A stretch of 64,000 bases of DNA, taken from assembly GCA_022841645.1 (NCBI GenBank), contig JALHRC010000002.1:36846-100845 (forward strand), read 5' to 3'. A model generated the notes under the pieces. That model worked only from the letters and a program-made list of their open reading frames with translations. It had not been told where the DNA came from and did not search any database. Each line of letters begins with the position of its first letter. Position 1 is the stretch's first letter. The position numbers and the translations under genes are program-made. This document shows, in pieces, positions 2 through 29,707 of the stretch. This DNA is from Minisyncoccota bacterium. GTDB taxonomy: Bacteria > Patescibacteriota > Minisyncoccia > Phycocordibacterales > UBA918.

Positions 2-337
2 CGTGGCTTTGATCTGCAGACTGGTAAAGTAGTGGCTCTCGACACGCTTCCGGCAGAGGTACCAAGCGAGTTGCCGGAAAGTGAATCTACAGGTGAGGTG
101 CGAGCTCTTCTACAAAACAAGCCCCACCAAAAAGAGGTTGCTGTTCAGACGGGTGAGGGTGAAAGCGATGGCCCGAACCCACTACCTGAACCCACCGCGA
201 CTTCAACTACTGAACTTACACTAGATTTGCGTAGCCCTACCACAACTAACGATGTGGAACTATTGACACCAACGTCCACAGATCCAACCTTTGATCTGGT
301 TATTGAGCCGGCGTCTAGTACACAGAGTATTCACTGA
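2..337 (+). CDS. 3' end of a hypothetical protein (5'-partial; acidic/Thr-Pro-rich tail)
   Basis: Frame 2 is open from the window edge to the stop at 337 (no stop upstream of the listed Met at 32). Low-complexity Glu/Thr/Pro-rich sequence. No recognisable domain. Confidence 0.35.
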   Translation, partial: RGFDLQTGKVVALDTLPAEVPSELPESESTGEVRALLQNKPHQKEVAVQTGEGESDGPNPLPEPTATSTTELTLDLRSPTTTNDVELLTPTSTDPTFDLVIEPASSTQSIH

Positions 338-377
338 TAGTTGTTCACAACTACGTGTAGAATAGGGGGAACGGAGT

Positions 378-3300
378 ATGAACGTACTGCGCCTGTCTTT
401 CCGTGTACGGAGCCGCCTGGCGGCAGTGCTTTTTGCAGTACTCCTACTTGAAGCTGTCTCAGGAATGTTCACTGCCTTACTCTTTGAACTACCGCGTGCT
501 GCAGCGGCACCAGTAGTTATTGAAGCTTCGCCAAGTACTGACGGTCCATCTCATTCTATCGCTGGCTCGCAAACTGTCTTTGTTAATGATTTAGTTGGGT
601 ACAAATTTTTTCGAGCATCTGGCGGGGCGTGTCAGTACCGTAAGACCACTAATGGTGGTACTAGTTGGGGGAGTCCTACTTCGGTAGACACTCAAACTGA
701 CTGTATTGGTGTGTCAGTGTGGTACGACCAGTGGACGCCAGGTGACACTGGTAGCCTTATTCATATCGTTACGATGGATACTGGTGATGACGATCTCTTC
801 TACAACGCACTCAATACCAGTAATGACACTCTGGCATCAACTACCGCACGTGCAGTAATCACTGTCGGATCGACCAATGCTACTTACGCTTCAAATGCTA
901 ACCGTGCAAACATTACCAAGGGCACAAATGGCATAGTCTACGTAGTGGCTGATGACGCCACTGGTAGTGGCACGATACTGCGGCGGTGTAGTGGAAGCTG
1001 TACGATAACTGCTAATTGGTCAGCCGCCGGCACCCCTCCCCAAGGCAATGCTGATAGTTGGTCAATGCTCCTGCCGCTTTCAGGTGGTAACATTATGCTG
1101 ATTAACCGAAGTACGGGTAACCTTTTACGCTACAGCGTGTGGGACGGATCTGACTGGGATACGTTTCAAAATATTGACGCTTCGGCAGTGCGCGGCACGA
1201 CTTACGACGTCAACATGGCCGCCACCTTAGATCATGAAAGTGGGGACATATTCCTCGCCTATGTTACTGACGCAAACGACTTCGTAACCGCCGATCATGA
1301 CATTCGCACTGCTGTTTATAGCGGTGGCTCATGGACCAACACGGCTGATGTTGTAACAAACTCTGGTCGTGGTATTCACCAGGTGGCGCTCGCCCGTGAT
1401 CAGAATACGGGCAATCTGTATCTTGCCTATACTGCGCGAACCACAATTACACTAGCAAATACCAGTCGTGTCTACTGGCATCTTTCAACCTCATCGATGC
1501 AGAGTTGGGGTGTAGAGCAAGGACCACTCGACTCATCAGCAGGAGACTTTTATGGCATTGACTTAAATATCATGTCGTACGACCGTATCTATGCCAGTTG
1601 GTTTGATAACGTCGCTGCCGTGCGTGATATTTTTGGTGAGACGTTAGCTGATATTGGTCCAGAGGTGCGCGTAAGTGCCACAGGCACTCAGATTGCCACG
1701 GTTCGATCTGAAACTAACAACTTCTATGTCGGCGGTAAATTTATTCTTGATGCTATTGCTACACGAACAGTGAGTAGCATTACGATTGCTGAAAACGGAA
1801 CAGTCGATGGAGAAAGCGAGCTTGATAACATTAAGTTGTTCTATGAATATGACACATCAGCTCCGTATAACTGTGCGAGTGAAAGTTATGATGGCGATGA
1901 AATACAATTCGGCAGCACTGAAACGGATGGATTTTCTGGTGCTGATGGCACAGCCTCTTTTAATGTAACCCCGCTAGCTTTTAGCTCGACCTCTCCATTG
2001 TGCCTCTATACAGTCGTTGATGTCCTCTCAACGGCTGATGATAATGAAACAATTCAAATTCATATTCAAAATCCTGAGGTTGATGTAGTGGTGAGTAGTG
2101 TTGAGGCCTATCCAGCTACTGCTGTAGCTCTCTCTGGCACTACAACAATTGCAGATCCGAATCTGACTCAAAACGCCTATCACTGGCGATTGGATAACGG
2201 CACTGAAGTAACGGCCAGCTCGGCAACTAATGGGGTTGAAAACACTGCCATTTCAGCCCTACAAAAAAACACTCCACGGCGCTTACGCCTAGGGGTAAGT
2301 AACGAAGGTTCTACTTCATCACTTCCAGTATCATTTGTACTTGAATACGGTGTAGCTGCACCAAGTTGCGACACTATTCCAAATTGGACAGTTCTTAACG
2401 ATGCATCTCCATGGGTAATGTACGACTCAAGTAACCTCACAGAGGGAGCTAACACAAACGATATAGCGACTAGTAGTGGCGGTGTAAGTAATGGAAATAG
2501 TAGTTTTATATCCAGTAATGGTGGCGTTCGCGATACTACGGCGACTTCAAGTGCAGTGACGCTTGGCACTACGAACTTCGTTGAGCTCGAATACTCCATC
2601 GTTGCGACGACCACTGCCGTTGAGGGCGAAACCTACTGTTTTCGGGTGAGTCGTTCTGGAACTGCGCTCGGTACGTACACGGCCTATCCCCAAGTCACCA
2701 TCGCAGCAGATGTGACTGTCAGTGCCACCGGTACCCAAGCTACCAGTAGTGATGTTGGTACTCCAAATAATTACTATGGTGGAACCTTTCGAATTGTTGA
2801 AAACTCGGGCAGCCGCAACTTCACTGCCATTACCTTCACGGAGCAGGGTACGGTAAATGCTGCAACTGGTATTTCTAGCGTTTCGCTGCGTTATGAGTTT
2901 GATACTTCAGCACCATACAATTGTGTGTCTGAAAGCTTTGACGGCAGTGAGCTCACTTTTGGCACTACCCAGCCAGCTTTTTCTAGTGCCGATGGTACAG
3001 TGACGTTTAACGACGTAGTGGGTATCGATACTACGAGTGCGCTTTGTCTTTACCTCACATACAGCGTCACCACAGCGGCGGCACATGGCGAAACCGTCAA
3101 TATTGTTATTTCTTCACCCGCCACCGACGTTGCAGTTTCGGGTGGTGGTTCTGTCGGCCCCTCGACGGTGGTGGATATGAGCGGCACTACCACCCTGCGT
3201 AGCGGTATCCTCACCCAAAATCACTTTCATTGGCGGCGTGATAACGGTAGCGAAACAACTGCCAGTTCTGCTACGAACGGCGTAGAGGATACAGGGCTGA

Positions 3301-6300
3301 CAGACTTTGCTCGTTCGTCAGCCATTCGTCTTCGTCTCGGCGTAAGCAACGAGGGTCCCACAACAAGTGTGCCAACACAGCTTTACTTGGAATATGGTCT
3401 TAAAATCACCACCTGCGCCAACGTGAGCACCTGGACAGAGGTGGGCACGACCACTGATGGATGGGACATGTACAACTCTAGCTTTATTACTGACGGCAGT
3501 GATACTACCAACATTGCAACGAGCACGGGCGGTGTGTCCGACGAAAACACTAGTTTTTTAACTGCCAATGGGGGTGTACGAGACCAAACCTCACGGACCG
3601 GTACTACAACGCTCAGCAGTACCGAGTTTACCGAACTCGAGTTTAGTCTCACTTCCACGGAGGATACCGCCTATGAGGCCACCTACTGCTTCCGCTTGAC
3701 AGCTGCCGGCACACCGCTACCCACGTATACCAACTACGCTGAGCTGACCACCGCTCCCAAGCGAGACTTTCGCATTCAGCGAGGTGTGACCACTGTCAGT
3801 GGCACCTCTACCGCCATTGTCGCTGGCGTTGATTACACAGCACCTTCATCTACTAGCCGTGCCTTTATTCGCATTACCAATACCTTTGATACGGGTGCTG
3901 GACGTACCACCGGAGGGGTAACGCAGAATCTCGACGACGTAACCACGTACATTCTAAACCCCTCAAACTTACTTACCAGTATTACGTTCGCGCGGCCCTC
4001 AACAGCAATTAACAACACACGCGTCGCGTGGGAAATCATTGAGTATGTTGGAGAATCAGGAACTGATAATGAAATGGTGGTGCGCGCTGTTGGCACCATC
4101 AACATGGCATCGGCTTCAACCACGGCAACAACGAGTGTTATTAGCGGGATAGGTGATGATGCAGATGTTGTGGTATTTGTAACCGGCTCACAATCACGTG
4201 GTACTACCCAGAATTACTATAGCGGGCAGTTTACCTCAAGCTGGGGCAGTACTACTGACCAGGCATCATTTCAGCGCGGTGCATCGGCCAGTACGCTGGC
4301 TGACCTTTCGTACGCAGTAGTAGAATTTACGGGCTTGAACTGGTCGGTGCAGCGAGTAGAACATACGTACGCTACTTCAAGTGGTGTGGAAACCGAAAAT
4401 ATTACACCGGTAGAGAGCTTGGGCAAGACATTCCTCTACGCGCAAAAACGCACCGGTGCTCAAGCCAACGTAATCAACTTTGGTCATGAAGTTTGGCTTT
4501 CCTCCATTGGTGCTGTTTCGTTTCGCCTCGAGCCACTTGCTTCCGTCGCCATCCCTCAAGTGTCAGTGGCGTGGGTCATTAGCAACTCGCAGCAAGGCAA
4601 TTCTGGTATGAGCGTGCAACGAAACAATGGTAATACGAGCGGTGGTACGGCCCCGCTGGCACTTTCCGTCACCATACCTTCTCCTATTGATGCTACTAAT
4701 AACGCATCGATCTTTGGCAACGGTCGCGGTGGATCTGCTAACACACAGTATCCAAACATTCATACTGGTATGCGCATTACGTCTACTTCAACGTTTGAAC
4801 TCTGGCGTGGCGCAACGGGCGTTGCACTTTCGTATCGCACAGAAATTGTTGAGTGGCCAGTATCAGATATTGGGGTTAGACAAAATGCCTATATGTTTTT
4901 TGTGCACAACAATGCCATTACCCCCACTGACCCTTGGCCGGCTGGTCCTGTAAATATTGGTGAAAGTACACCTATCGGGGTAGGTGATGAGCCGCTCGCT
5001 AATGGCGATGTCATTCGTATCCGTCTTACCGCGCGAGTGTCAAACGCTAATATGCCAGCAGGTTTGCGCGCCTTTAAGCTACAGTACGGTGTGCGTGCTG
5101 GCAGTTGCGCAGCCATAGAAACCTGGACTGACGTTGGGAGTGCTACCAGTTCAGCAATTTGGCGTGGATATGTAGCAACCGGTACTACAGACGGTAGTTC
5201 GCTGGGTAGCGACCCTCCGCAAAGTGGCGAAATTCTAATCCTCTCTACCAGTGATGTACTCGGTCGCCTCGTCCACCAAAACCCGGCAGCCCCCAACCCC
5301 TACACGGTGCTTGAAGGAGAAGATGTCGAGTATGACTGGCAAATTGTCCACAATGGTGCCGTGGCTCGCACAACGTACTGTTTTCGTATGGTTCAGTCTG
5401 ACGGCACACTGCTTGATGGCTACCTGGACTACCCGCAGATCCGTACTGCTGGCTACAACCCAGTCATGCAAAACTGGCGTTGGTATAGTGACTACGAGAA
5501 CATCACTCCCACCACAGCCCTCGCGGCTGAGAATACTGCACCAACGGGAATTGTGTATGACTCTGGGTTGGCTTTGCGTGTAGCGGTCGGAGAGACAAAA
5601 GCTGTTTCGGGTAATGATATCCGTTTCCGACTTCAGTTTTCTGATGACCCTACTTTTCTCTTGCCGCGGGACGTCGCTGCCAGTAGTACTTGCTCTGCCA
5701 GTGACAACTGGTGTTACATAAATGGTGGGGCGACAGATCACTCTGACCTGGCATCCTCTACTCTTTCTGATTCTGACCCTTGTGTGATGGGTGTCGGCAG
5801 TGGGTGTGGTCTGCATGTTTCGTCAGGGGTTTACCAAGCAGGGCATGCTCATGCCGGCGGTACTGTCCAGGAACATTCTTTTACCATTCGACATGCTGGG
5901 GCACGCGCAAAAGCTGTTTACTACTTCCGGTTATACGACACCATTAATGATGTTGTGGTACCACTTGGAAGTGGTGAGAGTTACCCATCACTTCTCACCG
6001 AAGCGCCGGTTTTGCAATTCTCTGTTGCCGATTTGCCTTCAGGCACGTCCACTGCCGGTATCGTGACAGATGCAACGACCACCTCAAGTACCATTAGCTT
6101 TGGCCGCCTGGCTCTTGACACTGACTACGAGGCTGCCCACCGTCTCTCGGTCGGTATTAACGCTACAGAAGGTTACCAACTGTTTTTCTATGCACGTAGT
6201 CAGCTCATCAATAGTAGCGGAGATGTTATACCTCCACTTTCTGCTACCAATGCTGCTCCGGTGGCTTGGGAAATAGGGTGCCCAGTAGCTACCTCTACAG

Positions 6301-6527
6301 GTTGCGTGGGTTATCACACTACTGATGGCACATTGGCCGGTGGCTCTGGGCGCTTCGCTCCAAACAATACCTATGCTGGTTTGGCGACCACACCACAGGA
6401 GATTATGTATAGTTCGCTACCCACCAGTGACACACATGACATCATTTACCGGGTGCGGATTGGTGATCAACAACCCGCCGGTGACTACAGTGCCGAGGTC
6501 GTCTACTTAGCCATTCCGGTATACTAG
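378..6527 (+). CDS. Giant secreted/cell-surface repeat protein (2049 aa), Ser/Thr/Gly-rich, with two ~349-aa tandem internal repeats and a BNR/Asp-box-like motif near the N-terminus
   Basis: Single 6.1 kb ORF. N-terminal basic region plus hydrophobic signal/anchor (LAAVLFAVLLLEAVSG). SD-like AGGGGGA about 10 nt upstream of the ATG. Motif KTTNGGTSWGS resembles a BNR repeat. Internal repeats start at VSATGTQ (nt ~1666 and ~2713) and end in a YCFR motif, with a degenerate third copy near the C-terminus. Confidence 0.85.
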   Translation: MNVLRLSFRVRSRLAAVLFAVLLLEAVSGMFTALLFELPRAAAAPVVIEASPSTDGPSHSIAGSQTVFVNDLVGYKFFRASGGACQYRKTTNGGTSWGSPTSVDTQTDCIGVSVWYDQWTPGDTGSLIHIVTMDTGDDDLFYNALNTSNDTLASTTARAVITVGSTNATYASNANRANITKGTNGIVYVVADDATGSGTILRRCSGSCTITANWSAAGTPPQGNADSWSMLLPLSGGNIMLINRSTGNLLRYSVWDGSDWDTFQNIDASAVRGTTYDVNMAATLDHESGDIFLAYVTDANDFVTADHDIRTAVYSGGSWTNTADVVTNSGRGIHQVALARDQNTGNLYLAYTARTTITLANTSRVYWHLSTSSMQSWGVEQGPLDSSAGDFYGIDLNIMSYDRIYASWFDNVAAVRDIFGETLADIGPEVRVSATGTQIATVRSETNNFYVGGKFILDAIATRTVSSITIAENGTVDGESELDNIKLFYEYDTSAPYNCASESYDGDEIQFGSTETDGFSGADGTASFNVTPLAFSSTSPLCLYTVVDVLSTADDNETIQIHIQNPEVDVVVSSVEAYPATAVALSGTTTIADPNLTQNAYHWRLDNGTEVTASSATNGVENTAISALQKNTPRRLRLGVSNEGSTSSLPVSFVLEYGVAAPSCDTIPNWTVLNDASPWVMYDSSNLTEGANTNDIATSSGGVSNGNSSFISSNGGVRDTTATSSAVTLGTTNFVELEYSIVATTTAVEGETYCFRVSRSGTALGTYTAYPQVTIAADVTVSATGTQATSSDVGTPNNYYGGTFRIVENSGSRNFTAITFTEQGTVNAATGISSVSLRYEFDTSAPYNCVSESFDGSELTFGTTQPAFSSADGTVTFNDVVGIDTTSALCLYLTYSVTTAAAHGETVNIVISSPATDVAVSGGGSVGPSTVVDMSGTTTLRSGILTQNHFHWRRDNGSETTASSATNGVEDTGLTDFARSSAIRLRLGVSNEGPTTSVPTQLYLEYGLKITTCANVSTWTEVGTTTDGWDMYNSSFITDGSDTTNIATSTGGVSDENTSFLTANGGVRDQTSRTGTTTLSSTEFTELEFSLTSTEDTAYEATYCFRLTAAGTPLPTYTNYAELTTAPKRDFRIQRGVTTVSGTSTAIVAGVDYTAPSSTSRAFIRITNTFDTGAGRTTGGVTQNLDDVTTYILNPSNLLTSITFARPSTAINNTRVAWEIIEYVGESGTDNEMVVRAVGTINMASASTTATTSVISGIGDDADVVVFVTGSQSRGTTQNYYSGQFTSSWGSTTDQASFQRGASASTLADLSYAVVEFTGLNWSVQRVEHTYATSSGVETENITPVESLGKTFLYAQKRTGAQANVINFGHEVWLSSIGAVSFRLEPLASVAIPQVSVAWVISNSQQGNSGMSVQRNNGNTSGGTAPLALSVTIPSPIDATNNASIFGNGRGGSANTQYPNIHTGMRITSTSTFELWRGATGVALSYRTEIVEWPVSDIGVRQNAYMFFVHNNAITPTDPWPAGPVNIGESTPIGVGDEPLANGDVIRIRLTARVSNANMPAGLRAFKLQYGVRAGSCAAIETWTDVGSATSSAIWRGYVATGTTDGSSLGSDPPQSGEILILSTSDVLGRLVHQNPAAPNPYTVLEGEDVEYDWQIVHNGAVARTTYCFRMVQSDGTLLDGYLDYPQIRTAGYNPVMQNWRWYSDYENITPTTALAAENTAPTGIVYDSGLALRVAVGETKAVSGNDIRFRLQFSDDPTFLLPRDVAASSTCSASDNWCYINGGATDHSDLASSTLSDSDPCVMGVGSGCGLHVSSGVYQAGHAHAGGTVQEHSFTIRHAGARAKAVYYFRLYDTINDVVVPLGSGESYPSLLTEAPVLQFSVADLPSGTSTAGIVTDATTTSSTISFGRLALDTDYEAAHRLSVGINATEGYQLFFYARSQLINSSGDVIPPLSATNAAPVAWEIGCPVATSTGCVGYHTTDGTLAGGSGRFAPNNTYAGLATTPQEIMYSSLPTSDTHDIIYRVRIGDQQPAGDYSAEVVYLAIPVY

Positions 6528-6539: not shown

Positions 6540-7547
6540 ATGCGTCACCTACCTATGCAGATTTTAAGTGGAGTGTTGCTTTTGCTATTTCTGCTACCCA
6601 GTGCGGTCTCAGGAGCAGTAACCGCAAGTCCGCTCATCATTGATCGTACCGTCGATGCGCGTGATATTTTTGATGAGCGTATAGTTATTGTAAATTCGAC
6701 TGATCTACCGACCCGTGTATTTGCCTCTGTTCATGAAATCACTCTTGACGAGGGTGGCTCTATCAAAACCTTTGTTCCTGCGTCAATGAGTGACCGTTCA
6801 CAGAGCGTGACGAGCTGGCTTGCAATTGATCGCCGTCGTCAAGAACTACCACCCGGTGCGTCTACATCGCTCGCTTTGAAGGTTAATATTAACCAGGATG
6901 CCGTGCCTGGTCTGTACCACGCTTTCATTGGTTTCGGTAGCGGCTCGAATCGAGATCAGGCAGAGGCCGCAGTCCTTGCGGGAACAGCTCCAGGGGTAAT
7001 TGTGAGGATTGAAGTTCGTGATAGCCGCGTTTCAGCACTGCGACTCGTTCGTTTTGTGGTCGACCGATTAGTTTTCGGCGCGTCACCGGCTGGCATTACT
7101 TACTCTATTGAGAACCCAGGAGATACCCCCCTTACGCCAACAGGGGAGGTAATTTTGTACAATAGTCATGGTGAAGAAGTGGGCGATATTTCAGTTGACA
7201 GTGTATCGCGTCCTATTGCGCCCGGTGAAACAGCGGAGTTCACATTGCCACTACCGACCGAGCATCTCTTTGGAAAATATAAGGCCTATCTCAGTTTGCG
7301 GTATGGTGCCGATGGTAGGGCTACTGTCCACGACACGGCGTTTTTCTACGCTGCACCCTGGATGTATTTGGCTTTGCTTTTTGCGGGTCTATTTATAATC
7401 GTACTGCTCGTGGTATTCTGGTGGCGTCGCGCTCTTCTTTTGAGCGACGAGACACCTGATGAAACCGTAACTGTGTATGTTCGCTCTGGTAAATCTGCTC
7501 CGGATCAGGACCATGATCTCACTCTCACAAAATCAACTGATACATAA
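6540..7547 (+). CDS. Hypothetical surface-anchored protein (signal peptide, beta-rich ectodomain, C-terminal TM anchor plus short acidic tail)
   Basis: Signal peptide LLLLFLLPSAVSGAV. Single C-terminal TM MYLALLFAGLFIIVLLVVFWWRR. The architecture resembles DUF916-like cell-surface proteins (inference). Confidence 0.65.
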   Translation: MRHLPMQILSGVLLLLFLLPSAVSGAVTASPLIIDRTVDARDIFDERIVIVNSTDLPTRVFASVHEITLDEGGSIKTFVPASMSDRSQSVTSWLAIDRRRQELPPGASTSLALKVNINQDAVPGLYHAFIGFGSGSNRDQAEAAVLAGTAPGVIVRIEVRDSRVSALRLVRFVVDRLVFGASPAGITYSIENPGDTPLTPTGEVILYNSHGEEVGDISVDSVSRPIAPGETAEFTLPLPTEHLFGKYKAYLSLRYGADGRATVHDTAFFYAAPWMYLALLFAGLFIIVLLVVFWWRRALLLSDETPDETVTVYVRSGKSAPDQDHDLTLTKSTDT

Positions 7548-9191: not shown

Positions 9192-9698
9192 ATGTCGCTT
9201 ATCCACTCAAACCAGTCTATGCACCATCGTACGATTTGGCTTTTTGTTGTTTTGTTCGCGGCCATTGTCATTGGTATGTTCACCTATGCCTATCTAGAGC
9301 GAAAGGAACGCACAGCGCAGGTGGCACCGGTAATCAACTCTAGCTCCACTCCTTTGAGCACGCCACTTGATCAGCGTGTGAATGCTAAACACTACTACAT
9401 AGATGGCACACACAGCTTTGCCGGCATCGTGTCGCTTCCCACTCCGTGCGATCTGCTTGAGGCCACTGCGCGTGTGGCAGAGTCGTTTCCGGAGCAAATA
9501 ATTATCGACTTTACGACCACCAATAATTCTGAGTCGTGTATCCAGGTTGTAAGCGAACAGCGCTTTCTAGTAAGTGCTCAGGCCTCGTCTGAAGCACGCA
9601 TCAGTGCGACGTGGAATGGTCAGCCAATTGAGCTCAACCTTACTCCGGCCGCACCAGGTGAGAGGCCCGAGGACTTTGAAGTTTTTGTAAAAGGTTAA
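9192..9698 (+). CDS. Hypothetical protein with an N-terminal TM anchor
   Basis: 168-aa ORF, N-terminal TM (IWLFVVLFAAIVIGMFTYAYL), co-directional and tightly spaced with its neighbours. Confidence 0.5.
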   Translation: MSLIHSNQSMHHRTIWLFVVLFAAIVIGMFTYAYLERKERTAQVAPVINSSSTPLSTPLDQRVNAKHYYIDGTHSFAGIVSLPTPCDLLEATARVAESFPEQIIIDFTTTNNSESCIQVVSEQRFLVSAQASSEARISATWNGQPIELNLTPAAPGERPEDFEVFVKG

Positions 9699-9708: not shown

Positions 9709-10413
9709 ATGCCTGCATTCGTCATCCCGCTTTCCATTGTTCTTGGCAGCTCACTCATCGCTGGAGCAATTTATTTTAGTAACTTTTCTTCTGCGCCCAG
9801 TGCACCAAGTGCTGCTGTGCCCAATAATGCGGCTCCTCAGCGCCCAGTTCTACCAACGGTAGTTGAGGGGGTGAATCTTGCCCGAGCTGAGAATCGTCAC
9901 CTTTACGGTAATCCTGAGGCTCAGATCACTATTATTGAATTTTCGGACTACGAATGCCCGTTTTGTGCTCGACTCCATCCAACGCTGAAGCGGATTGTTG
10001 ATGAATCTGATGGAAGTATAAATTGGGAATACCGGCATCTCCCTCTGCCGATGCACAGCGGCGCTGTCCCAGCTGCGATCGCTAGCGAGTGCGTAGCGCG
10101 TGAGCTCGGGAATGATGCATTCTGGAAGTTCACCGATGTACTTTTTGCTAATATCGGCAAGGCCAACGCCTCATTCTTAAAGGCAGAGGCTGGCAAACTG
10201 GGTGCAACGGCAGCTACGTATGATGCGTGCATTAGCGATAGTTCGGTTAAGGCCTTGGTTGATGCTGACGCGGCAGCGCTCATAGAGGAGTTTGGCCAAC
10301 AGGGGACACCGTTCTCGCTGATTGTTGATAATCGAACTGGCACCGGCCGACCAATTGTGGGTGCGTTGCCGTACGAAAACTGGCAGCAAGCACTCGCTGC
10401 TCTTGGTTCCTAG
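9709..10413 (+). CDS. DsbA-family thiol:disulfide oxidoreductase (membrane-anchored)
   Basis: N-terminal TM. Thioredoxin-fold active site FSDYECPFCARLHP (CPFC), the classic DsbA context. Confidence 0.8.
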   Translation: MPAFVIPLSIVLGSSLIAGAIYFSNFSSAPSAPSAAVPNNAAPQRPVLPTVVEGVNLARAENRHLYGNPEAQITIIEFSDYECPFCARLHPTLKRIVDESDGSINWEYRHLPLPMHSGAVPAAIASECVARELGNDAFWKFTDVLFANIGKANASFLKAEAGKLGATAATYDACISDSSVKALVDADAAALIEEFGQQGTPFSLIVDNRTGTGRPIVGALPYENWQQALAALGS

Positions 10414-15737: not shown

Positions 15738-17816
15738 GTGCTGCAGGAATCGCTAGTCATGTTTAAAATCTCCACTGAAAAAACACCGGCTGGTGACCAG
15801 CCAAAGGCGATTGAGGCCCTCATAAAGGGTGTTGAAGCTGGACATGTGCACCAGACGCTTTTAGGTGTGACCGGCTCGGGTAAAACTTTTACCGCGGCTA
15901 ATGTCATTCAGCACGTCCAAAAGCCAACGCTCGTGATTGCCCACAATAAAACGCTAGCTGCTCAACTGGCGCAAGAGTACCGCGACTTCTTTCCTGAAAA
16001 TGCTGTGCACTATTTTGTCTCCTACTACGATTACTACCAGCCGGAGGCCTATATGCCGACTTCGGACACCTACATCGAGAAGGAAGCGATGATCAACGAA
16101 GAAATCGATCGTCTTCGTCACGCCTCTACGCAAGCACTGCTTACGCGGCAAGACGTGATCATTGTGGCCTCGGTCTCGTGTATTTACGGTCTTGGTTCAC
16201 CAAAAGAATACATGAAGGTACACCGCAAGATCGAGCGTGGCTACGAAACTACCCGCACTGACATGCTGCGGGTACTGGTTGATATGTACTTTGAACGTAC
16301 GAACGCCGACCTCACCCCTGGCCACTTCCGGGCGGTGGGTAACACGATTGAGATTATGCCTACCAACGAACGCACTATTTATCGCCTTGGCTTTGTGGGT
16401 AACCAAGTCTCTGAGATCACCCGTATCGACGGCATTACGAGGGCCATTATCGACGAGCCAGATGTCTTTTTTCTGTTTCCGGCCAAGCACTTTGTGACGC
16501 CTGAAGACGAACGTAAAGTAGCGATGGCCGATATAAAGCTCGAGCTCGATGAGCAGCTTAAGAAATTTAAAGCAGAAGGGAAGCTTCTCGAGGCCGAACG
16601 GCTACGCCGCCGTACCGAACACGACCTGGCGCTTATCCGCGAGGTGGGGTATTGCAATGGTATCGAAAATTATTCGCGCCATTTTGATCGCCGTCAGCCA
16701 GGTGAGGCACCGTACACGTTGCTGTCCTACTTTCCACACACCAAGGACGGAAAGCCAGACTTTCTCACCATTATCGACGAGTCACACGTCACTATTCCAC
16801 AGATTGGCGGTATGTACGCTGGTGATCGCTCGCGTAAGGATACGCTTGTAGAGCACGGCTTTCGCCTGCCGAGCGCAATCGACAACCGCCCGCTCAATTT
16901 CGCTGAGTTTGAAGAGCGGGTAGGGCAGCGCATTTATACATCAGCCACTCCGGGAAAATACGAATACGCCCAAGCAGAAAAAACTCAGGTGCCCATGGTC
17001 GAGCAAATCATTCGCCCGACCGGGCTTATCGACCCCGAAATCGATATGCGACCCGTCACTGAAAAGGGCACCTACCCGGGACAGATCAAGGATTTTATTG
17101 AAGAGGCAGTAAAGGTAATCAAAGGTGGTGCTCGAGTACTTACCACCACCCTCACCAAAAAAATGGCCGAGGATTTGGCTGAGTTCCTTTCCGAGCGAAA
17201 TATTAAAACCAAGTACATCCACAGCGATGTTGATACTCTCGAGCGCATTGAAATTCTCACCGACTTCCGCAAGGGGGTGTTCGATTGCTTGGTGGGCGTC
17301 AACCTGTTGCGCGAAGGGCTCGATCTCCCCGAAGTGGAACTGGTCGCTATTCTTGATGCCGACAAGGAAGGTTTTTTGCGTAGCCCGACAGCGCTCATCC
17401 AAACTATCGGTCGGGCAGCCCGTAATGTACGTGGGCGCGTGGTGCTGTACGCCGACGAAATGACAGCCGCCCTCACGTACGCAGTGTCAGAAACCAATCG
17501 TCGCCGCTCGCTCCAGCTGGCGTATAACGAGAAGCACGGCATCACCCCCACAACAATTGCTAAGGAAATTAAATCAATTGCTGACCAATTACGCACAGAG
17601 CACGATGAAACAATCGACACGCTCCTTAAGGTTGATATGGCGCTCTTCGAGGAGAATCCAAAGGCAGTAATGGCTGACAAACGTCGGCAAATGGAGGAGG
17701 CGGTAGCAATTTTAGACTTTGAAACCGCCGCTATCATTCGCGATGAGATAAAAGTCCTCGAAGAATCGCAAAAAGGGAAGAAGGGCAGGGGCAAAGTACC
17801 TCGTCGCAAAAAATAA
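15738..17816 (+). CDS. uvrB: Excinuclease ABC subunit B
   Basis: Walker A TGSGKTFTAANVI. The UvrB beta-hairpin region YFVSYYDYYQPEAYMP. Helicase motifs. C-terminal UvrBC interaction segment (DFETAAIIRDEI). Confidence 0.9.
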   Translation: MLQESLVMFKISTEKTPAGDQPKAIEALIKGVEAGHVHQTLLGVTGSGKTFTAANVIQHVQKPTLVIAHNKTLAAQLAQEYRDFFPENAVHYFVSYYDYYQPEAYMPTSDTYIEKEAMINEEIDRLRHASTQALLTRQDVIIVASVSCIYGLGSPKEYMKVHRKIERGYETTRTDMLRVLVDMYFERTNADLTPGHFRAVGNTIEIMPTNERTIYRLGFVGNQVSEITRIDGITRAIIDEPDVFFLFPAKHFVTPEDERKVAMADIKLELDEQLKKFKAEGKLLEAERLRRRTEHDLALIREVGYCNGIENYSRHFDRRQPGEAPYTLLSYFPHTKDGKPDFLTIIDESHVTIPQIGGMYAGDRSRKDTLVEHGFRLPSAIDNRPLNFAEFEERVGQRIYTSATPGKYEYAQAEKTQVPMVEQIIRPTGLIDPEIDMRPVTEKGTYPGQIKDFIEEAVKVIKGGARVLTTTLTKKMAEDLAEFLSERNIKTKYIHSDVDTLERIEILTDFRKGVFDCLVGVNLLREGLDLPEVELVAILDADKEGFLRSPTALIQTIGRAARNVRGRVVLYADEMTAALTYAVSETNRRRSLQLAYNEKHGITPTTIAKEIKSIADQLRTEHDETIDTLLKVDMALFEENPKAVMADKRRQMEEAVAILDFETAAIIRDEIKVLEESQKGKKGRGKVPRRKK

Positions 17817-17889
17817 GCCGCCACTCTAGGCAAAAGTTATCGACAGCGCGCGACATTTAGGGTCGCGCTTAGAGCTATACTGTACACAA

Positions 17890-20400
17890 ATGGCTGAACG
17901 TCCATCACGCAAATCTGCGCCGCTAGAAACTGTGTCACCCTCACCTTTAGTGACGGGGAAGACTTCCTCACCGGCTCGCAAAAAGGCTGTGCCTCGTTCC
18001 CACAAAGCAGCTCCACCGGCGAAGAAGATTACTCGTGCAAAGCGTCCCGTGAGTAACACGAAGGCTAAGGCACCCAACACTGATGCACAAAAGCGAGCTA
18101 AAATCGCTGAACGAATTGTCGAGCAGATGTTTAGTGGCGGCCCAGTGAATGTTTCCAAGGGCGAAGCCAGAGTAGTACCACCAAAGGAAGAAGCGGCGAT
18201 TGTCACGGTCCCAAGCAACTGGAGTGTTCGTGTACTCGATAAGGCAGCGGCGCTTGAGCAGTGGTACCAGGAACGCTTTCCGCGTTACGCTGCCAAGACG
18301 GCTACCTACGCTGGCCTATTTTTCGTACTAGTAAGCTCGGGCGTCCTAGCTGTCCATGCCGTGCAGGCCTACCCTAGTTGGCAGTCACTGCAATCGGCAG
18401 TTTTGTGTGGCACCCTCAGTTGCGACGAAGTCACTACCGGCAGTCGTGACGGCACTACTACCGCCACCACACCAGTTTCTGCCGATGTAAGCGCTACTAA
18501 GACCGACTCACTACGGAGCCCCGCAGCGAACACCCTCGTGCCACCACCGGTGGTGACATTTCTTACTAATCCCACCTCACCACTCCTTACTGAAACCACG
18601 TTTGTTGTGCGGGCTGAGTATGTCAAGGAATTATCTGTTGTCGCCGAGTCGCGGCGCACCGGCAGTCGCGTTGTTCTACAGCTCGCTGGCGACCCCGCTG
18701 GTTCTGACCACACCTTCATTTTAAATCCCAAGGAACTCTCGCCTGACGAATACGAACTGCGGGCTCGTGGTGTGGCGCAGCGCGACGGGGGGAGACTCCT
18801 AGCTACGGGCGGCCGCTTTGTTATCTCTGCCCGCACCACCGCTGCGTCGGAGAGCGCTACCGAAGCGCCTTCCGACTCTGAGACTGCTGAGGATGAAGAG
18901 GAGAGCGCAGACGAAGAAGAGACAGCAGAAGTTGTCGAAGAAGCGCCCACCTCACCAGCTGCTGAATTTGGCGTACTCTCACTTTCACCGCAGAATGTTG
19001 GTGATGTTGTGACACTTTCACTGCTTTCTCCGAGCACACAGTTTGTTGAGGTCTATGCCCAGCGCCGCAACGCCACCACCCCAACTTTTATTGGTCTGGC
19101 TGAGCGCCGCGAGGACCATCTGTGGCGACTGGCCTTCAAACCCAGCACACAGCCAGCCGGCGAATACGTATTTTTTGCGCGCTACAAGAACACTCGTGGT
19201 CTCCAGGAAAGCAATCGCGTTCCTTACACTGTTCGAGTGAGCGAAGATGCTGCGAGGACTTTAAGTGAGCGTTCCAGTAGTACCGTAGCCACCGTGGCGA
19301 CGAGAGAGGTGATCAACGAGCTGCAGAGGGAAGCCGTACCACTCCCTTCACGGAGCGCCTATTCAGAAGAACTGGAAGTGGCTACTGGCAGCTCAACACC
19401 AACCACTGCTTCCGATGCACCACTGAGTGAACTCTTAAAGGATGATCGGTCAGAACTCGACACACTTTTGCAGCGCTATGCCAGCGCCTTCCAGAGTGGT
19501 GACCCGGTCTTGGGTGAGGTAGCACGCAAGGACTTAGCAACCTTTAAAGAACGAATGGTCCAGCGAGCAGTCGAGAGAAACGACAGCGACGAACACTCAT
19601 CAGCCGACACCGTGGCTGTGGCCATCGAGGGGGAGCTCAAGCGATTGACTGAGAAAGTTGAAACGTTTGAAACACTCTTGCGTGAGCGCAGCAGCGAACA
19701 GGCACGCACCGACACCGATGGTGACGGCATTACCGACTACGATGAAGAAACCCTCTACGGCACCGACCCGCAAAACGCCGACACTGACGGCGACGGCATA
19801 AACGACGGCATTGAAATCATGAGGGGTTATGACCCCCACAGCGCCGCCGCCGAAGCAGTCATGACCTACGAGTCTCCGCGCGATCTTGGCTTTGAGCGTG
19901 CGGACGTTTTGGCTATAGATACTGTTGTTCCCGTGGTTGAAACTGACATTTCTCGTGGTACACCACCAGTGCAAGCAGAGATCCGGGGCCGCGCTCTACC
20001 GAGCAGCTTTGTCACGCTCTTCATCTACAGTACGCCGGTTGTAGTCACCATTCGCACTGAAGCTGACGGAAGCTTCGTCTATCAATTTGATAAGGAACTC
20101 GAAGATGGTTCGCACGAAGTGTATGTCGCAGTCACCGACAACCAAGGTGCCATCATGGCCAAGAGTGCTCCCTTCCGCTTCATAAAGGAGGCCTCAGCCT
20201 TTACCGTAGCCGATGAGGAAGCCAGCGAAGCCCCAGCGGCCACAGCCCCCGCCGGCGAGCCGATCGTTGTCCGCGAAGTCTACAATGTGATTGCCGCCCT
20301 CGGCGTGCTGGCGTTTGGCCTCATCTTACTGATCTTTGGTATGATGCTGCGCCGTACACCACCGACCGTGCCCGAAACTGGTCCCGCCGCTACGCACTAG
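17890..20400 (+). CDS. Hypothetical bitopic membrane protein with a Lys/Ala/Pro-rich basic N-terminus, acidic low-complexity stretches, thrombospondin-type-3-like DxDxDG calcium-binding repeats and a C-terminal TM
   Basis: Basic N-terminus (SPARKKAVPRSHKAAPPAKKITRAKRP...). TM near residue 145. The acidic stretch EDEEESADEEETAEVVEE. TDTDGDGITDYDEETLYGTDPQNADTDGDGINDG. C-terminal TM VIAALGVLAFGLILLIFGMML. Confidence 0.65.
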   Translation: MAERPSRKSAPLETVSPSPLVTGKTSSPARKKAVPRSHKAAPPAKKITRAKRPVSNTKAKAPNTDAQKRAKIAERIVEQMFSGGPVNVSKGEARVVPPKEEAAIVTVPSNWSVRVLDKAAALEQWYQERFPRYAAKTATYAGLFFVLVSSGVLAVHAVQAYPSWQSLQSAVLCGTLSCDEVTTGSRDGTTTATTPVSADVSATKTDSLRSPAANTLVPPPVVTFLTNPTSPLLTETTFVVRAEYVKELSVVAESRRTGSRVVLQLAGDPAGSDHTFILNPKELSPDEYELRARGVAQRDGGRLLATGGRFVISARTTAASESATEAPSDSETAEDEEESADEEETAEVVEEAPTSPAAEFGVLSLSPQNVGDVVTLSLLSPSTQFVEVYAQRRNATTPTFIGLAERREDHLWRLAFKPSTQPAGEYVFFARYKNTRGLQESNRVPYTVRVSEDAARTLSERSSSTVATVATREVINELQREAVPLPSRSAYSEELEVATGSSTPTTASDAPLSELLKDDRSELDTLLQRYASAFQSGDPVLGEVARKDLATFKERMVQRAVERNDSDEHSSADTVAVAIEGELKRLTEKVETFETLLRERSSEQARTDTDGDGITDYDEETLYGTDPQNADTDGDGINDGIEIMRGYDPHSAAAEAVMTYESPRDLGFERADVLAIDTVVPVVETDISRGTPPVQAEIRGRALPSSFVTLFIYSTPVVVTIRTEADGSFVYQFDKELEDGSHEVYVAVTDNQGAIMAKSAPFRFIKEASAFTVADEEASEAPAATAPAGEPIVVREVYNVIAALGVLAFGLILLIFGMMLRRTPPTVPETGPAATH

Positions 20401-20404
20401 CCGT

Positions 20405-21763
20405 ATGCTCTCGCGCCTTTTTTTGTTGCTGCGCCAGGGGCTCGGTGCTATCTACCAGCACGGCGAATTGTGGCTCGTCGTGATTCTCGCCGTTGTAATT
20501 CCTTTTGGTTTACTTTTTGTGGTTTACCGCACCACGACTGTAGCCGACTCAGCCCTCGAGCAGGTCGAAATCGAGCGCCTAGATGCCATCCATGAGGCAA
20601 TTGAAAATCGTCTCCGCACCGGGGTGACGGGTAGTGTGCCACTTTCTGTTGAGTTACATGCCCTCGCTTCCACCTCGCCTGATTTGCGCACCCTCGCCGT
20701 CGCTACCGAGGCCTCGGTCGACACTTTGTTACTCGTCGCTGCCACGGGCCAATTGTCATCTTCAGTAGGGACAGTAGTTACCTCCGTCAGTGAACGCTAC
20801 CGCACCGCGCTCACGCTTCCCGGGGAAATTTTCGTGCACAAACTGAGGGTAGGGGAGGAGCGCGTATGGCTTACCTATAGTGCAGTAACCAGTCCCGCTG
20901 GCACCACGTACTATATTCACTCCGAACTCTCGCGTGCTCGCTTTGACGCTGCCTTAGAGGCCGAGCGGACACCCATCTATGCCCTTTCCGGTGTGCACGC
21001 TGGCTTCATTCTCCTCTGTGCCTACCTGGTGGCAGCTGGGCTTGCCTCACGCGGTCGCCTCAAGGAGGCGACCGCCCGTCTACGCGAGGAGTCGCTTTTA
21101 ACCAGTCTCGTCGTCCATGAACTGCGCGCACCACTTACTGGTATCAGGGGTTACGCGAGTATGATTGAGGAAAACAGTGTGTTGCCCGCTCTCGTACGCA
21201 CGCAGGCGACCAATATAAAACAGTCTTCAGTACGTTTGGTCTCGCTCGTCAGTGATTTCCTCGAGGCCGCCCGACTACGCGCCGAAATTGCTCCTCCCAT
21301 ACTGGCTCCTACCGACCTTCATAGTGTCGTGAAGCGAGTAGTAGCGGAACTAGCACCAGTGGCTGAGGAGAAGCACCTCACTCTTTTTGTGGCCGCCACT
21401 GAGCCCCTTCCTTTAGTGATGGGAAACGAAAAGCACCTCACACAAATCGTCACGAATCTCGTAGGTAACGCTATTAAGTACACCAGAGAGGGGCGCATTG
21501 AGGTTGCCCTCGTAGACGACTCCTTCTCCCTCGAGCTACGCATCAAAGACACGGGGCTTGGTATGTCAGCGGCCGATCAGGCTCGTCTCTTTGCACCGTT
21601 TTCGCGCGTCGGCGATGCCGCTACCCAGAGCATCACCGGCACGGGCCTCGGCATGTGGATTACAAAACTTATGGTGGAGCAGCTCGGTGGCACTATCGGA
21701 GTAGAATCCATTAAGGGTATCGGCACACATGTGGTGGTGCGGTTTAAGAAAGCTCAAAAATAG
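20405..21763 (+). CDS. Sensor histidine kinase (two TM helices flanking an extracytoplasmic sensor domain; HisKA and HATPase_c)
   Basis: H-box HELRAPLTGIRGYASMI. N-box LVGNAIKYT. G-boxes IKDTGLGM and GTGLGMWITKLMVEQLGGTIGVES. No response regulator is adjacent. Confidence 0.85.
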   Translation: MLSRLFLLLRQGLGAIYQHGELWLVVILAVVIPFGLLFVVYRTTTVADSALEQVEIERLDAIHEAIENRLRTGVTGSVPLSVELHALASTSPDLRTLAVATEASVDTLLLVAATGQLSSSVGTVVTSVSERYRTALTLPGEIFVHKLRVGEERVWLTYSAVTSPAGTTYYIHSELSRARFDAALEAERTPIYALSGVHAGFILLCAYLVAAGLASRGRLKEATARLREESLLTSLVVHELRAPLTGIRGYASMIEENSVLPALVRTQATNIKQSSVRLVSLVSDFLEAARLRAEIAPPILAPTDLHSVVKRVVAELAPVAEEKHLTLFVAATEPLPLVMGNEKHLTQIVTNLVGNAIKYTREGRIEVALVDDSFSLELRIKDTGLGMSAADQARLFAPFSRVGDAATQSITGTGLGMWITKLMVEQLGGTIGVESIKGIGTHVVVRFKKAQK

Positions 21764-21790
21764 GCTATACTACGCCGATTTCATCATATT

Positions 21791-24445
21791 ATGGCCAGCG
21801 GACCAGCAAAAAAGCGCTCCACGACCTCGTGGGAGATGAGTGAAAGGCGTGCCAAAGACGCCAAGATTATTGTTCGTGGCGCCCGCACCCACAACCTAAA
21901 GAACATTACCGTCGAGATGCCACGGGGCGCGATGATCGCTGTCACCGGCCCTTCAGGCTCAGGGAAATCATCGCTCGCCTTTGATACCATCTTTGCCGAA
22001 GGGCAGCGTCGCTACGTCGAATCACTTTCGCCCTACGCGCGCCAGTTTCTCAACAAAATGCAAAAGCCCGATGTCGACGAAATCGCCGGCCTCTCACCTG
22101 CCATCTCGATTGATCAAAAGTCAGCTTCACGCAATCCCCGTTCAACCGTCGCAACCATCACTGAAATTTACGACTACTTGCGCATCCTCTACGCGCGCGT
22201 CGGCCAGCCGTACTGTCTCGATGTTGATGTGCCAATCCAAAAGCTTTCCCAAGACGAAATCTTGGGGATGATTTTGAAGTCGATCGAAGAACGTGAGGTC
22301 GAGAACGCCAAGAAGGATGCCCAGAAAGTGATGGGGATCGAACTCTCGAAAGGACGCGTAGCTATCTTTGCGCCCATGGTCGTCGGTCGCAAGGGTGAAT
22401 ACTACCAACTCCTTTACGACCTACTGGGAAAGGGCTATGAGACAGTAAAGATCGACGGGGAAATCAAACGTCTGCGTGAAAAAATTGAGCTCTCCCGCAC
22501 CAAGCGGCATGATATTGATGTGCTCATCGATGATATTTATGTGAGTGAATTTCGGGATGACCCCAAAGGATCGCGCGAACGGCTTTCAGAGGCCATTGAA
22601 CTGGCGTTGCGCGAAGCGAACGGCTTGGTGAAGGTACAAAGTCCCGATGGAAGCGAGCGGACACTTTCAGCCAAGTTTATTTGTCCGGTGGACGGCTCAT
22701 CATTTCCCGAAGTTGAGCCACGGCTTTTTTCATTCAATTCACCCTACGGTGCTTGTCCTGAATGTAACGGCCTTGGCATGATTGGCATCTTTCAAAGTGA
22801 TGTCTGTCCGTCGTGTAAAGGGGCCCGTCTGCGCCCTGAGGCTATGCGCGTCTACCTCGGAGGTGACGGCAAGAGTAATCTTGGCGTCAACATCGTTGGC
22901 TTCACTGCTATGACCGTGAAGGAGGCCACGACGTTTATCGCTGGGCTTAAACTCAGTAAAAAACAGCAGGACATCGCGTGGCCAGCCTTGCGTGAAATTA
23001 TTGAACGCCTCGAGTTTATGAATAATGTGGGCATCGAGTATCTCACCCTCGACCGCCGTGCCAACACCCTTTCGGGTGGTGAAGCACAGCGCATTCGCCT
23101 CGCCTCACAGCTTGGCTCCGGCCTCGTAGGGGCGCTCTATGTGCTCGACGAGCCAACCATCGGCCTCCACCAACGAGACAACGACCGTCTTATCAAGACG
23201 CTCGAGGAGCTGCGTGACCTTGGTAACACCATCATTGTAGTAGAACACGATGAAGACACTATTTTTGCTGCTGATTATCTTATCGACATCGGCCCGGGGG
23301 CTGGAGTTCATGGTGGGGAAGTGGTAGTGGCCGGTTTTTTAAAACCGCTGCTTGACGCTCCCAAGAACACCTCTGGTTCATCAACGTTGGCCTACCTGCG
23401 CGGCGAGAAGCGTATCGAGATCCCTGAACGCCGCACCGCCGAGCGAGGTAGCCTCAAAATCCGTGGTGGCAAAGCCAATAATATTAAAAATCTCAATGTT
23501 GATATTCCGCTCGGGCGCCTCATCTGCGTCACCGGTGTCTCAGGTTCAGGCAAGTCGACCTTCATGTATGACATTGTTGACCGCAATTTAAAGTCTCGCC
23601 TCGAAAAGCGCTACCGTACACCGCATACGTACAATTGCGCGAGCTTCTCGGGTACCGAGTATGTTAACCGTTCAATACTGATTGATCAGTCGCCCATTGG
23701 CCGCACACCACGTAGCAATCCGGCTACCTACACGGGAGCGTTTTCTCACATTCGTGACCTCTTTGCCGCCTCAGGTGAAGCGCGCGCTCGCGGATGGAAG
23801 CCTGGACGCTTTAGCTTCAACGTAAAAGGTGGCCGCTGCGAGGCTTGCCAGGGAAATGGCGAAATTGCCGTCGAAATGCACTTCCTCCCGACCGTGTATG
23901 TCACCTGTGACGTGTGTGACGGCAAGCGCTTTACCAAGGAGACGCTCGAAGTCACCTACAAAAAGAAAAACATCGATCAAATACTCCATATGACCATCGA
24001 GGAGGCGCACCAGTTCTTTGCCGACGTGCCCTCGATCGAAGAACGCCTCAAGACGCTGCTTGATGTAGGCTTGGGCTACCTAGAGCTCGGACAAAGCGCC
24101 ACCACGCTCTCGGGTGGCGAGGCACAACGAGTAAAAATTGCTTCAGAACTCTATAAGCCACACACGCAGAAAACCATTTACCTCCTCGATGAGCCCACCA
24201 TTGGTCTTCACTATGATGACGTAAAAAAGCTGATTGAAATTCTTCAGCAGCTTGTAAGTAAGGGCAACACTGTGATGGTGATCGAGCACAACCTTGATCT
24301 CATTAAGTGTGCTGACTACATTATCGATATCGGGCCCGAAGGTGGCGTGGGTGGCGGAGACGTGGTGGCCAAGGGAACTCCCGAAGAAGTGGCTGAAAGC
24401 AAAAAATCCCACACTGGGAAGTATCTGGCGAAAGTACTTCGCTAA
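21791..24445 (+). CDS. uvrA: Excinuclease ABC subunit A
   Basis: Two ABC ATPase modules ([15 protein letters not shown]; [15 protein letters not shown]). ABC signatures [12 protein letters not shown] and [12 protein letters not shown]. Zinc-finger cysteines CPECNG, CPSCKG, CEACQG. Confidence 0.9.
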
Positions 24446-24563
24446 ATCACCAAGGGCGCGCAAGCCTTCGCCAGCGCGCCCACCCGATTACTTAAACCAC
24501 AGCTGCCACATATATAGGGCAAGGCTCGTAAAGCCAATCACGAGCAAGATAAGAAGTACCATC

Positions 24564-24752
24564 TCACTCCCCATTGTACCCCCCGGTCCGTTGGTGTGGA
24601 CCTGCGCGCAAAAACTCATCGATCTCACTGGACTTCAGTGGGATGATTTGCCCCGGCGCCCACCCAGACCCATCGTCGACATGAGTGTCCAGGACGAAGA
24701 AGAGTACGGGGATGGTTAGTACACCCAGAACATAGCCGATAATAAAACTCAT
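24564..24752 (-). CDS. Small hypothetical membrane protein (62 aa)
   Basis: Internal ATG of the listed 114-aa minus-strand ORF. Strong SD (GGAGGGAG) 5 nt upstream of this ATG on the minus strand. One TM (FIIGYVLGVLTIPVLFFVL). Lies in the uvrA-uvrC gap. Confidence 0.4.
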   Translation of the reverse strand: MSFIIGYVLGVLTIPVLFFVLDTHVDDGSGWAPGQIIPLKSSEIDEFLRAGPHQRTGGYNGE

Positions 24753-29706: not shown

Positions 29707-29707
29707 T

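Follow-up and report, generated by a model that had tools for sequence, protein, structure and literature searches.

The 64,000-nt window analysed here, i.e. the whole stretch of DNA at positions 36,846-100,845 of the forward strand of contig JALHRC010000002.1 (assembly GCA_022841645.1, a Minisyncoccota bacterium), carries near its 5' end an uninterrupted open reading frame (ORF) with an ATG start at 378..6527 (+). It encodes a 2049-aa protein of ~215 kDa, which we call BIG. This gene call had been made in a first-pass annotation of the same DNA and was reproduced exactly; the reduced-genome host supposed there also agrees with the source, a member of the Paceibacteria/Parcubacteria lineage of the candidate phyla radiation (CPR). 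BIG may belong to a multi-protein assembly conserved on the cell surface of the Paceibacteria, in which it would be the large subunit, secreted and anchored non-covalently; we hold this reading about as strongly as we doubt it. The features of BIG and of the DNA just upstream are as follows, all on the + strand.

32..337, +: 3' end of the upstream cluster gene u1 (ORF); the window begins inside u1
364..376, +: purine-rich stretch AGGGGGAACGGAG, Shine-Dalgarno-like as read from the sequence, just 5' of the ATG at 378
378..6527, +: BIG, candidate large secreted subunit (ORF, homologues)
378..509, +: signal-peptide-like N-terminus, aa 1-44 (hydropathy scan)
510..1670, +: predicted BNR_2/sialidase-like beta-propeller "head", aa 45-431, with four invariant Cys (profile matches)
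1671..2132, +: module A1, aa 432-585, probable beta-sandwich by analogy with the A2 model, with the invariant Cys pair C499/C542
2133..2717, +: module B1, aa 586-780, beta-sandwich with C664/C754 and TYCFR at its end
2718..3176, +: module A2, aa 781-933 (AlphaFold2 model with a predicted local distance difference test score, pLDDT, of 94.9; A1 and A2 match at hhalign 100%)
3177..3767, +: module B2, aa 934-1130 (hhalign, AlphaFold2 model)
3768..4811, +: region M, aa 1131-1478, unique and all-beta (model pLDDT about 85-90)
4812..5453, +: module B3, aa 1479-1692 (blastp, hhalign; partly of low confidence in the model)
5454..5942, +: module B4, aa 1693-1855, with a YYFR end and four invariant Cys (hhalign)
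5943..6524, +: C-terminal beta domain C, aa 1856-2049, common to BIG and the cluster protein u6; putative docking or anchor domain

After export BIG is a chain of all-beta domains, the full order being signal peptide-propeller-A-B-A-B-M-B-B-C. The hydropathy scan showed a basic n-region, a hydrophobic stretch at aa 12-30 and then AAAA-P within aa 1-44, which is the least conserved part of the protein, while M is the best conserved and contains numerous invariant polar residues. In 25 diverse sequences, 20 Cys never vary, which amounts to about one pair for each domain. The N-terminal segment is the only hydrophobic one, and both a C-terminal transmembrane helix and an LPXTG motif are absent. 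The earlier description of BIG as a surface protein was therefore borne out as far as its secreted type is concerned.

The first-pass annotation had also described two tandem repeats of ~349 aa with ~50% identity. These are real, although the coordinates given for them were 5-7 nt off: the first repeat (R1, aa 432-780, nt 1671-2717) and the second (R2, aa 781-1130, nt 2718-3767) share 47.7% identity over 348 columns (blastp, E 5.4e-93). The motifs reported for them were recovered as well, with VSATGTQ (432/781), DTSAPYNC (492/842) and LRLGVSNEG (636/985) each found twice and TYCFR three times (752/1102/1666). A third, degenerate copy, placed near the C-terminus, does exist, but it corresponds to no more than the unit's second half and lies 380 aa from the C-terminus (aa 1479-1692, aligning to unit positions 149-346 with 32% identity, E 2.6e-11, blastp). 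A fourth and weaker half-unit copy, which had been overlooked, occupies aa 1693-1855 and ends with YYFR at 1848. Using module alignments of 120 homologues, profile-profile comparison gave mutual probabilities of 92-100% for B1, B2, B3 and B4. What had been taken for a single 349-aa repeat is instead made of two independent modules, A (~150 aa) and B (~195 aa), present twice and four times, respectively, in BIG and used separately in thousands of other proteins. No further copies of A, B, M or C were found elsewhere in the 64-kb window.

The duplication that gave rise to R1 and R2 is old and not an artefact, because the two share only one 77-nt stretch at the DNA level, with 69% identity. As a repeat at the DNA level is absent, recent duplication and assembly error were both ruled out as sources of the repeats. 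Within one protein R1 and R2 are 45% identical, and orthologous R1s from different species are 46% identical; the nearest neighbour of R1 was another R1 in 34 of 34 cases. This clustering of R1s with R1s indicates that the duplication is older than the family and that there has been no concerted evolution.

BIG is itself a typical and well-conserved representative of its family in the Paceibacteria. At least 217 relatives were found at 90% clustering, nearly all of 2045-2060 aa and 50-68% identical to BIG over 98-100% of its length, from Parcubacteria/Paceibacteria ("Nomurabacteria", "Kaiserbacteria", OLB19). With each species represented by a single genome, a scan returned 160 BIG-encoding loci. 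Among the 120 homologues listed, 102 are 2000-2099 aa long, and identity to BIG stays at ~50-60% in each 50-residue block with hardly any gaps. The only other frequent length class, 2413-2473 aa, results from a tandem duplication of the N-terminal domain and not of the repeat. The first-pass annotation had regarded BIG as a giant repeat adhesin, and length polymorphism in repeat number had been suggested as a check. Among the relatives no such polymorphism exists in the main family; it is the N-terminal domain that varies. The CPR origin, the large size and the internal repeats would fit a fast-evolving adhesin of episymbionts with variable copy number, but the constant repeat number, the ancient duplication without concerted evolution, the lack of a DNA-level repeat, the uniform conservation and the conserved operon described below all contradict it, and we consider this explanation very improbable indeed.

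Variation of another kind was found in a set of BIG paralogues, in which the match to BIG starts only at aa ~424 and is preceded by N-terminal regions of about 210, 510, 610 or 1425 aa. Some are second copies in tandem with BIG that carry a divergent N-terminal region (loci L020, L024 and L050), and others are solitary, without d1 and d2 neighbours (L023, L035, L057, L066, L071 and L077); at least three of the solitary paralogues come from genomes that also carry the main locus. An insertion of ~270 aa lies within B1 in L071 and L077. The longest N-terminal region, of 1425 aa, belongs to a 3035-aa protein (L073), which also has one additional B module.

The structure of the repeat unit was modelled with AlphaFold2 on a 45-row alignment of R1 and R2, which gave two beta-sandwich domains (pLDDT 94.9, predicted template modelling score 0.82). 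For aa 1131-2049 a model from 24 rows was likewise all-beta (pLDDT 77.6), with M, B4 and C good and B3 poor. Searched against the PDB with Foldseek, the repeat unit retrieved weak, generic tandem sandwiches (best E 5e-4, TM-score <=0.32), among them two Bacteroidales sialidases, transglutaminase barrels, integrin legs and the Ig-like domains of PrgB; against BFVD it retrieved nothing specific. In the PDB the model of aa 1131-2049 likewise matched nothing but elongated proteins made of several sandwiches, i.e. integrin alpha, mastigoneme, alpha-2-macroglobulin and PrgB (best E 1.7e-7, TM-score <=0.32). Foldseek thus found no fold relative specific to A, B, M or C. In their tandem beta-sandwiches the modules resemble PrgB Ig-like domains (8beg), the thigh and calf of integrin alpha and the MG domains of alpha-2-macroglobulin, which are among the best matches of both models. 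Unlike these elongated multi-Ig proteins, however, BIG has a conserved Cys pair in each module, and its matches are weak and without membership of their sequence families.

The repeat domain was earlier said to have no obvious known family, and this holds: with BIG and with a 120-sequence consensus, the repeat unit matched no Pfam family at E up to 1-10, no NCBIfam model and no PDB sequence at E up to 10. M and C likewise had no Pfam, NCBIfam or PDB-sequence match, whether BIG, the family consensus or the aa 1131-2049 profile was used. Membership of a well-known Ig-like or cadherin-like family, which had been named as a result that would make the repeat less novel, was seen only in the weak sense of a generic Ig-like sandwich pair; a specific family match was absent, and Pfam Big_*, Cadherin, fn3, PKD and similar profiles gave no significant match to the repeat unit.

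The modules are nevertheless widespread. An exhaustive HMMER search of 1.84 billion representative proteins with the repeat-unit profile matched 2,467 clusters at E<=1e-3, of which 1,294 reached 1e-10. The two modules matched separately from each other. A single protein could hold as many as 24 matched stretches, the longest of the matched proteins was 6,179 aa, and the named carriers come from Parcubacteria, Falkowbacteria, Chloroflexota and Wallbacteria. Wallbacteria, Chloroflexota and CPR have proteins of 2,400-6,200 aa in which 10-24 copies are strung together in arrays (P0121, P0146, P0204, P0197 and P0241). Two of these, P0197 and P0241, one of them from Chloroflexota, start with a sequence that weakly resembles the N_methyl pilin-type motif but stays below its cut-off of 21.2 bits (21.1 and 19.4 bits). 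No Pfam model covered the A and B modules of the array proteins examined. In uncultivated phyla, A and B are common components of giant extracellular proteins.

For the N-terminal head, the first-pass annotation had proposed a BNR/sialidase-like domain from an SxxGGxSW motif. The motif is present at aa 90-97 (nt 645-668) as TTNGGTSW, which begins with T instead of S, and it is the single canonical Asp-box-like copy. The domain assignment itself is supported by homologues: PF13088 (BNR_2) was matched by 14 of 40 orthologous N-terminal domains (E<0.01, best 4e-7), and the only PDB entries found with the N-terminal profile were sialidases (NanB at E 0.025, NEU1 at E 0.86). Another family, GSDH, likewise a propeller, was matched by 2 of the 40. 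The N-terminal domain of BIG alone had no Pfam match and lay below every threshold, and homologue P0078 scored 31.0 bits for PF13088 against a cut-off of 31.4. On these profile similarities we accept the domain as a probable BNR/sialidase-like propeller at superfamily level.

This similarity could mean that BIG is a surface-tethered glycoside hydrolase, with a catalytic exo-sialidase-like propeller and with sandwiches acting as carbohydrate-binding modules or spacers, which scavenges nutrients from glycans of the host or the environment. Besides the BNR_2 and PDB matches of the head, such a role would fit the two Bacteroidales sialidases of family GH33 among the top Foldseek matches of the repeat unit, which have N-terminal beta-sandwich modules, and another giant protein with CBM60 modules that is encoded in the window. 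However, BIG itself stays below the Pfam gathering score, the similarity to sialidases seen with Foldseek is weak (E 5e-4, TM-score 0.29) and lies outside the catalytic domain, and the head is wholly replaced in the paralogues. Moreover, neither an Arg-Ile-Pro motif nor an obvious Arg triad was found in the conserved columns of the head; R403 is the only invariant Arg, with R144, R244 and R310 conserved at >=90%. We therefore regard a hydrolase as unlikely and catalysis by the head as putative. As the Arg-Ile-Pro motif is missing from the conservation lists, ligand binding by the head is something that we only infer. Compared with BNR/GH33 sialidases such as NanB, the head has in common the Asp-box-like motif, the sub- to near-threshold PF13088 matches of its orthologues and the sialidase matches in the PDB, and it differs in that BIG is sub-threshold, a conserved catalytic motif was not evident, and the domain tops the stalk of a 2049-aa protein and is duplicated or replaced in relatives.

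BIG is encoded in a cluster whose gene order is nearly invariant: u8-u7-u6-u5-u4-u3-u2-u1-BIG-d1-d2-d3-(DsbA)-redoxin-AI-2E-PGA_cap-FKBP-TGT-UvrB. Since the window starts in the tail of u1, genes u8-u2 lie outside it and are known from related loci (L001-L081). In 59 of the 65 loci with enough sequence, d1 and d2 follow BIG, the six exceptions being solitary paralogues, and u6 lies upstream of BIG in 39 of 44 related loci. The genes directly downstream of BIG in the window are as follows.

6540..7547, +: d1, 335 aa, WxLIP(DUF916)-like, with a signal peptide, two Ig-like domains and a C-terminal transmembrane helix
7477..9180, +: d2, 567 aa, d1 paralogue, WxLIP_PGBD-like, with two transmembrane regions and a C-terminal LytR_C domain
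9192..9698, +: d3, a conserved cluster protein of 168 aa with a membrane anchor and no known family
9709..10413, +: DsbA-like thioredoxin with an N-terminal hydrophobic segment
10419..10967, +: redoxin with an N-terminal hydrophobic segment

The frames of d1 and d2 overlap by 71 nt (7477..7547), and an overlap of ~50 nt was called in L001; this could reflect translational coupling, or the true start of d2 could lie further downstream.

The last ~175-190 aa of BIG are shared with u6, a secreted protein of 382 aa encoded six genes upstream, which has a signal peptide and no transmembrane anchor. The two C-terminal domains match at hhalign 99.7% (E 3.6e-27) and, in reciprocal hmmsearch, the profile of the BIG domain found 50 of 50 u6 proteins and that of the u6 domain found 41 BIG proteins. 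The shared domain ends in a conserved aromatic-rich strand. As BIG and u6 both have a signal peptide and neither a transmembrane anchor nor LPXTG, they would have to be held at the surface non-covalently, or else be released.

Candidate partners for these two proteins are encoded in the same cluster. The products of u8, d1 and d2 are paralogues (mutual homology at 96.7-99.9%), each combining Ig-like ectodomains with transmembrane helices and a signal peptide. PF06030 (WxLIP_PGBD, formerly DUF916) was matched by 27 of 39 d2 orthologues (best E 1e-6) and by 8 of 38 d1 orthologues (best 1.3e-5), for which it is the most frequent family. All of these matches are below the Pfam gathering score, so the homology is remote. 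When aligned with four genuine WxLIP (DUF916-DUF3324) proteins, d1 reached hhalign 94.9% and d2 84.1% over the DUF916 domain, while nine control domains (the whole of u6 and eight BIG domains) remained at <=0.5%. The reference WxL clusters were those on Enterococcus, Bacillus, Lactococcus and Listeria plasmids, with genes annotated as WxL and DUF916. A second Ig-like domain in d1 and d2 is suggested by no more than weak matches to generic Ig families. LytR_C was matched by 29 of 39 d2 orthologues.

In the WxL cluster model, a small WxL protein, a large WxL protein and a DUF916 protein are encoded together (PMC9772566, PMC10599100); in the WxL/Csc clusters of Firmicutes the last of these is WxLIP, a DUF916-DUF3324 protein with a transmembrane helix (PMC9772566, PMC10599100, PMC1534035). 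Firmicutes hold >91% of WxL sequences (PMC9772566). Such clusters frequently, but not always, include an LPXTG protein or a sortase. DUF3324 is a host-binding domain, and binding of WxL domains to DUF916 has been proposed for Firmicutes. The Paceibacteria cluster resembles this arrangement in three respects: u6, a small protein, and BIG, a large one, are both secreted and have in common a beta domain that is always C-terminal, the large one carries N-terminal beta-rich domains in a linear array, and membrane-anchored proteins with two Ig-like domains are homologous to WxLIP_PGBD/DUF916. It differs in its CPR host, in the length of BIG, 2-4x that of large WxL proteins (500-1000 aa), in having three WxLIP-like paralogues instead of one, of which one is fused to LytR_C, and in lacking a DUF3324 signal, an LPXTG protein and a sortase; no LPXTG protein or sortase was found in the cluster, and no C-terminal LPXTG was present in the 19 cluster and flanking proteins scanned. 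The C-terminal domain also differs, having neither detectable WxL homology nor Trp-x-Leu. Judged by its sequences, the cluster is organised like WxL/Csc, yet the defining domain does not place it in that class.

Several of these results weigh against BIG as the anchored subunit of a WxL-like assembly. The C-terminal domain reached no more than hhalign 1.2% against 13 genuine small and large WxL domains; PF13731 (WxL) was not matched by BIG, its homologues or their consensus; Trp-x-Leu motifs are absent, the strands reading G-[YF]-x-[VL] and Y-[LV]-A; and DUF3324 (PF11797) was not found in any of 77 d1/d2 orthologues at E<0.01. A tblastn search of plasmid sequences with the u6 C-terminal domain returned nothing relevant. 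To these can be added the Arg motifs missing from the head and the extreme conservation and fixed length of BIG, which a structural envelope protein could likewise show.

Such a structural protein could take the form of a surface layer (S-layer), in which BIG with u6 would form a regular array and the C domain would act as a wall anchor, comparable to the SLH or CWB2 families with their one anchor common to many paralogues. The uniform conservation, with fixed length and hardly any indels in >100 species, the strict synteny, the single anchor domain found in both the small and the large protein and among paralogues, and LytR_C, an envelope-associated domain, in d2 are all consistent with this. 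However, searches of BIG against Pfam and NCBIfam returned none of the S-layer domains, SLH and CWB2 included, and its Foldseek relatives are elongated legs and fibres, none of them lattice proteins. A size of ~215 kDa, an enzyme-like propeller and interchangeable heads also point to a displayed binding module rather than to a lattice subunit. We would give the S-layer only a small share of the probability.

Another possible arrangement is that of a chaperone-assisted fimbria, with a u6 shaft polymerised through the common C domain, BIG as an adhesive cap at the tip, and the DUF916-like proteins as chaperones or platform. The C-terminal beta domain with its aromatic-rich last strand, common to the small and the large protein, and the three Ig-like partner proteins would suit such a system, and one Foldseek match was a CFA/I chaperone-tip adhesin complex (E 1e-3). 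That match is marginal, however (TM-score 0.13), and the cluster contains no usher, sortase or pilin-type signal; a tip adhesin therefore seems improbable.

For BIG as a non-covalently anchored surface subunit, a mechanism can be proposed. As the arrangement matches the minimal definition of a WxL/Csc cluster, the C-terminal domains of BIG and u6 may dock on the Ig-like ectodomains of d1, d2 and u8. The A, B and M modules would form a rigid, disulfide-stabilised stalk, which could keep a glycan-recognising propeller head off the cell for binding to the surfaces of hosts or particles. The exchange of heads in the paralogues, with stalk and anchor constant, might then diversify target or specificity. 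The 20 invariant Cys of BIG together with the genes for a DsbA-like protein and a redoxin, both membrane-anchored and encoded three genes downstream, suggest dedicated extracytoplasmic disulfide formation, and the two gene products possibly serve disulfide formation in Cys-rich surface proteins. In related loci the DsbA gene is often missing, and the redoxin gene is nearly always there.

The upstream genes of the related loci add further components. In these loci u1 encodes a secreted protein of 510-700 aa with an acidic low-complexity region and, judged from weak similarity to the DUF5050 family, a possible beta-propeller, and u3 is predicted to be membrane-anchored with a region that is possibly coiled-coil. 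A cohesin was detected in u4 (33.1 bits against 24.1), to whose domain u5 and u2 are homologous; two of these three cohesin-like proteins are membrane-anchored. Dockerins were found in u7 (29.9 bits), a Cys-rich protein with DUF4215 and Big_6, and in u2 (24.2 bits), the threshold being 22.9. The same operon thus codes for cohesin-like and dockerin-like proteins, as used in cellulosome-type scaffolds. Unlike the components of such assemblies, BIG contains neither module in Pfam searches and is tied to them through co-location only.

Taken as a whole, the 12-gene operon (u8-u1, BIG and d1-d3) might encode an undescribed surface organelle of the Paceibacteria, in which DUF916-type proteins are combined with a non-WxL docking domain, carried by u6 and by ~2000-aa fibres with exchangeable heads, and with a cohesin-dockerin system. 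It would be a CPR counterpart of WxL/Csc, possibly a relative, and the main device with which these cells attach to hosts or particles, and A, B, M and C would be four new families. This wider proposal is tentative, and we lean somewhat against it.

Elsewhere in the window, a giant envelope protein of 1684 aa is encoded at 51477..56531 (-); it has two CBM60 carbohydrate-binding modules and a C-terminal PG_binding_1 domain for peptidoglycan, and its mode of anchoring is a different and recognisable one. An AcrB-type RND transporter (1046 aa, E 2e-182) and a HlyD-type membrane-fusion protein are encoded at 42359..47052 (-), a tripartite-pump-like pair that is unexpected in a CPR genome if the cell has no outer membrane. 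The genes uvrB (15738..17816), a uvrA-like gene (21791..24445) and uvrC (24828..26075) are clustered within 15738..26075, with an 836-aa TSP3/Big_13 surface protein and a histidine kinase encoded between them. The stretch at ~28000..32000 has a GC content of 0.42-0.45 against ~0.51 elsewhere and may be an inserted or foreign segment; tRNA-Ala(tgc) lies just before it at 27750-27823 (-) and tRNA-Ala(ggc) within it at 29308-29381 (+).

Among the uncultivated bacteria of groundwater and wastewater, Paceibacteria/Parcubacteria rank with the most abundant, and to our knowledge hardly anything has been established about how their cells make contact with hosts or particles. A Paceibacteria paper mentions just adhesion-related folds of a generic kind, and among the top-ranked papers of literature searches on WxL, cohesin or dockerin in CPR none contained these three terms. 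What is new here is a WxL/Csc-like surface cluster of CPR bacteria that differs in its putative docking domain and has additional WxLIP paralogues as well as cohesin and dockerin proteins.

The cluster extends DUF916/WxLIP-type anchoring beyond the Firmicutes and suggests that the partner domain of WxLIP may differ from WxL. Defining A and B as families would annotate much "dark" sequence; the two occur in ~2,470 representative protein clusters, among them pilin-like proteins and proteins of 4,000-6,000 aa from CPR, Chloroflexota and Wallbacteria. For the Paceibacteria themselves, the BIG operon, kept in >160 species-level genomes, is a concrete candidate for the surface-attachment apparatus of the lineage.

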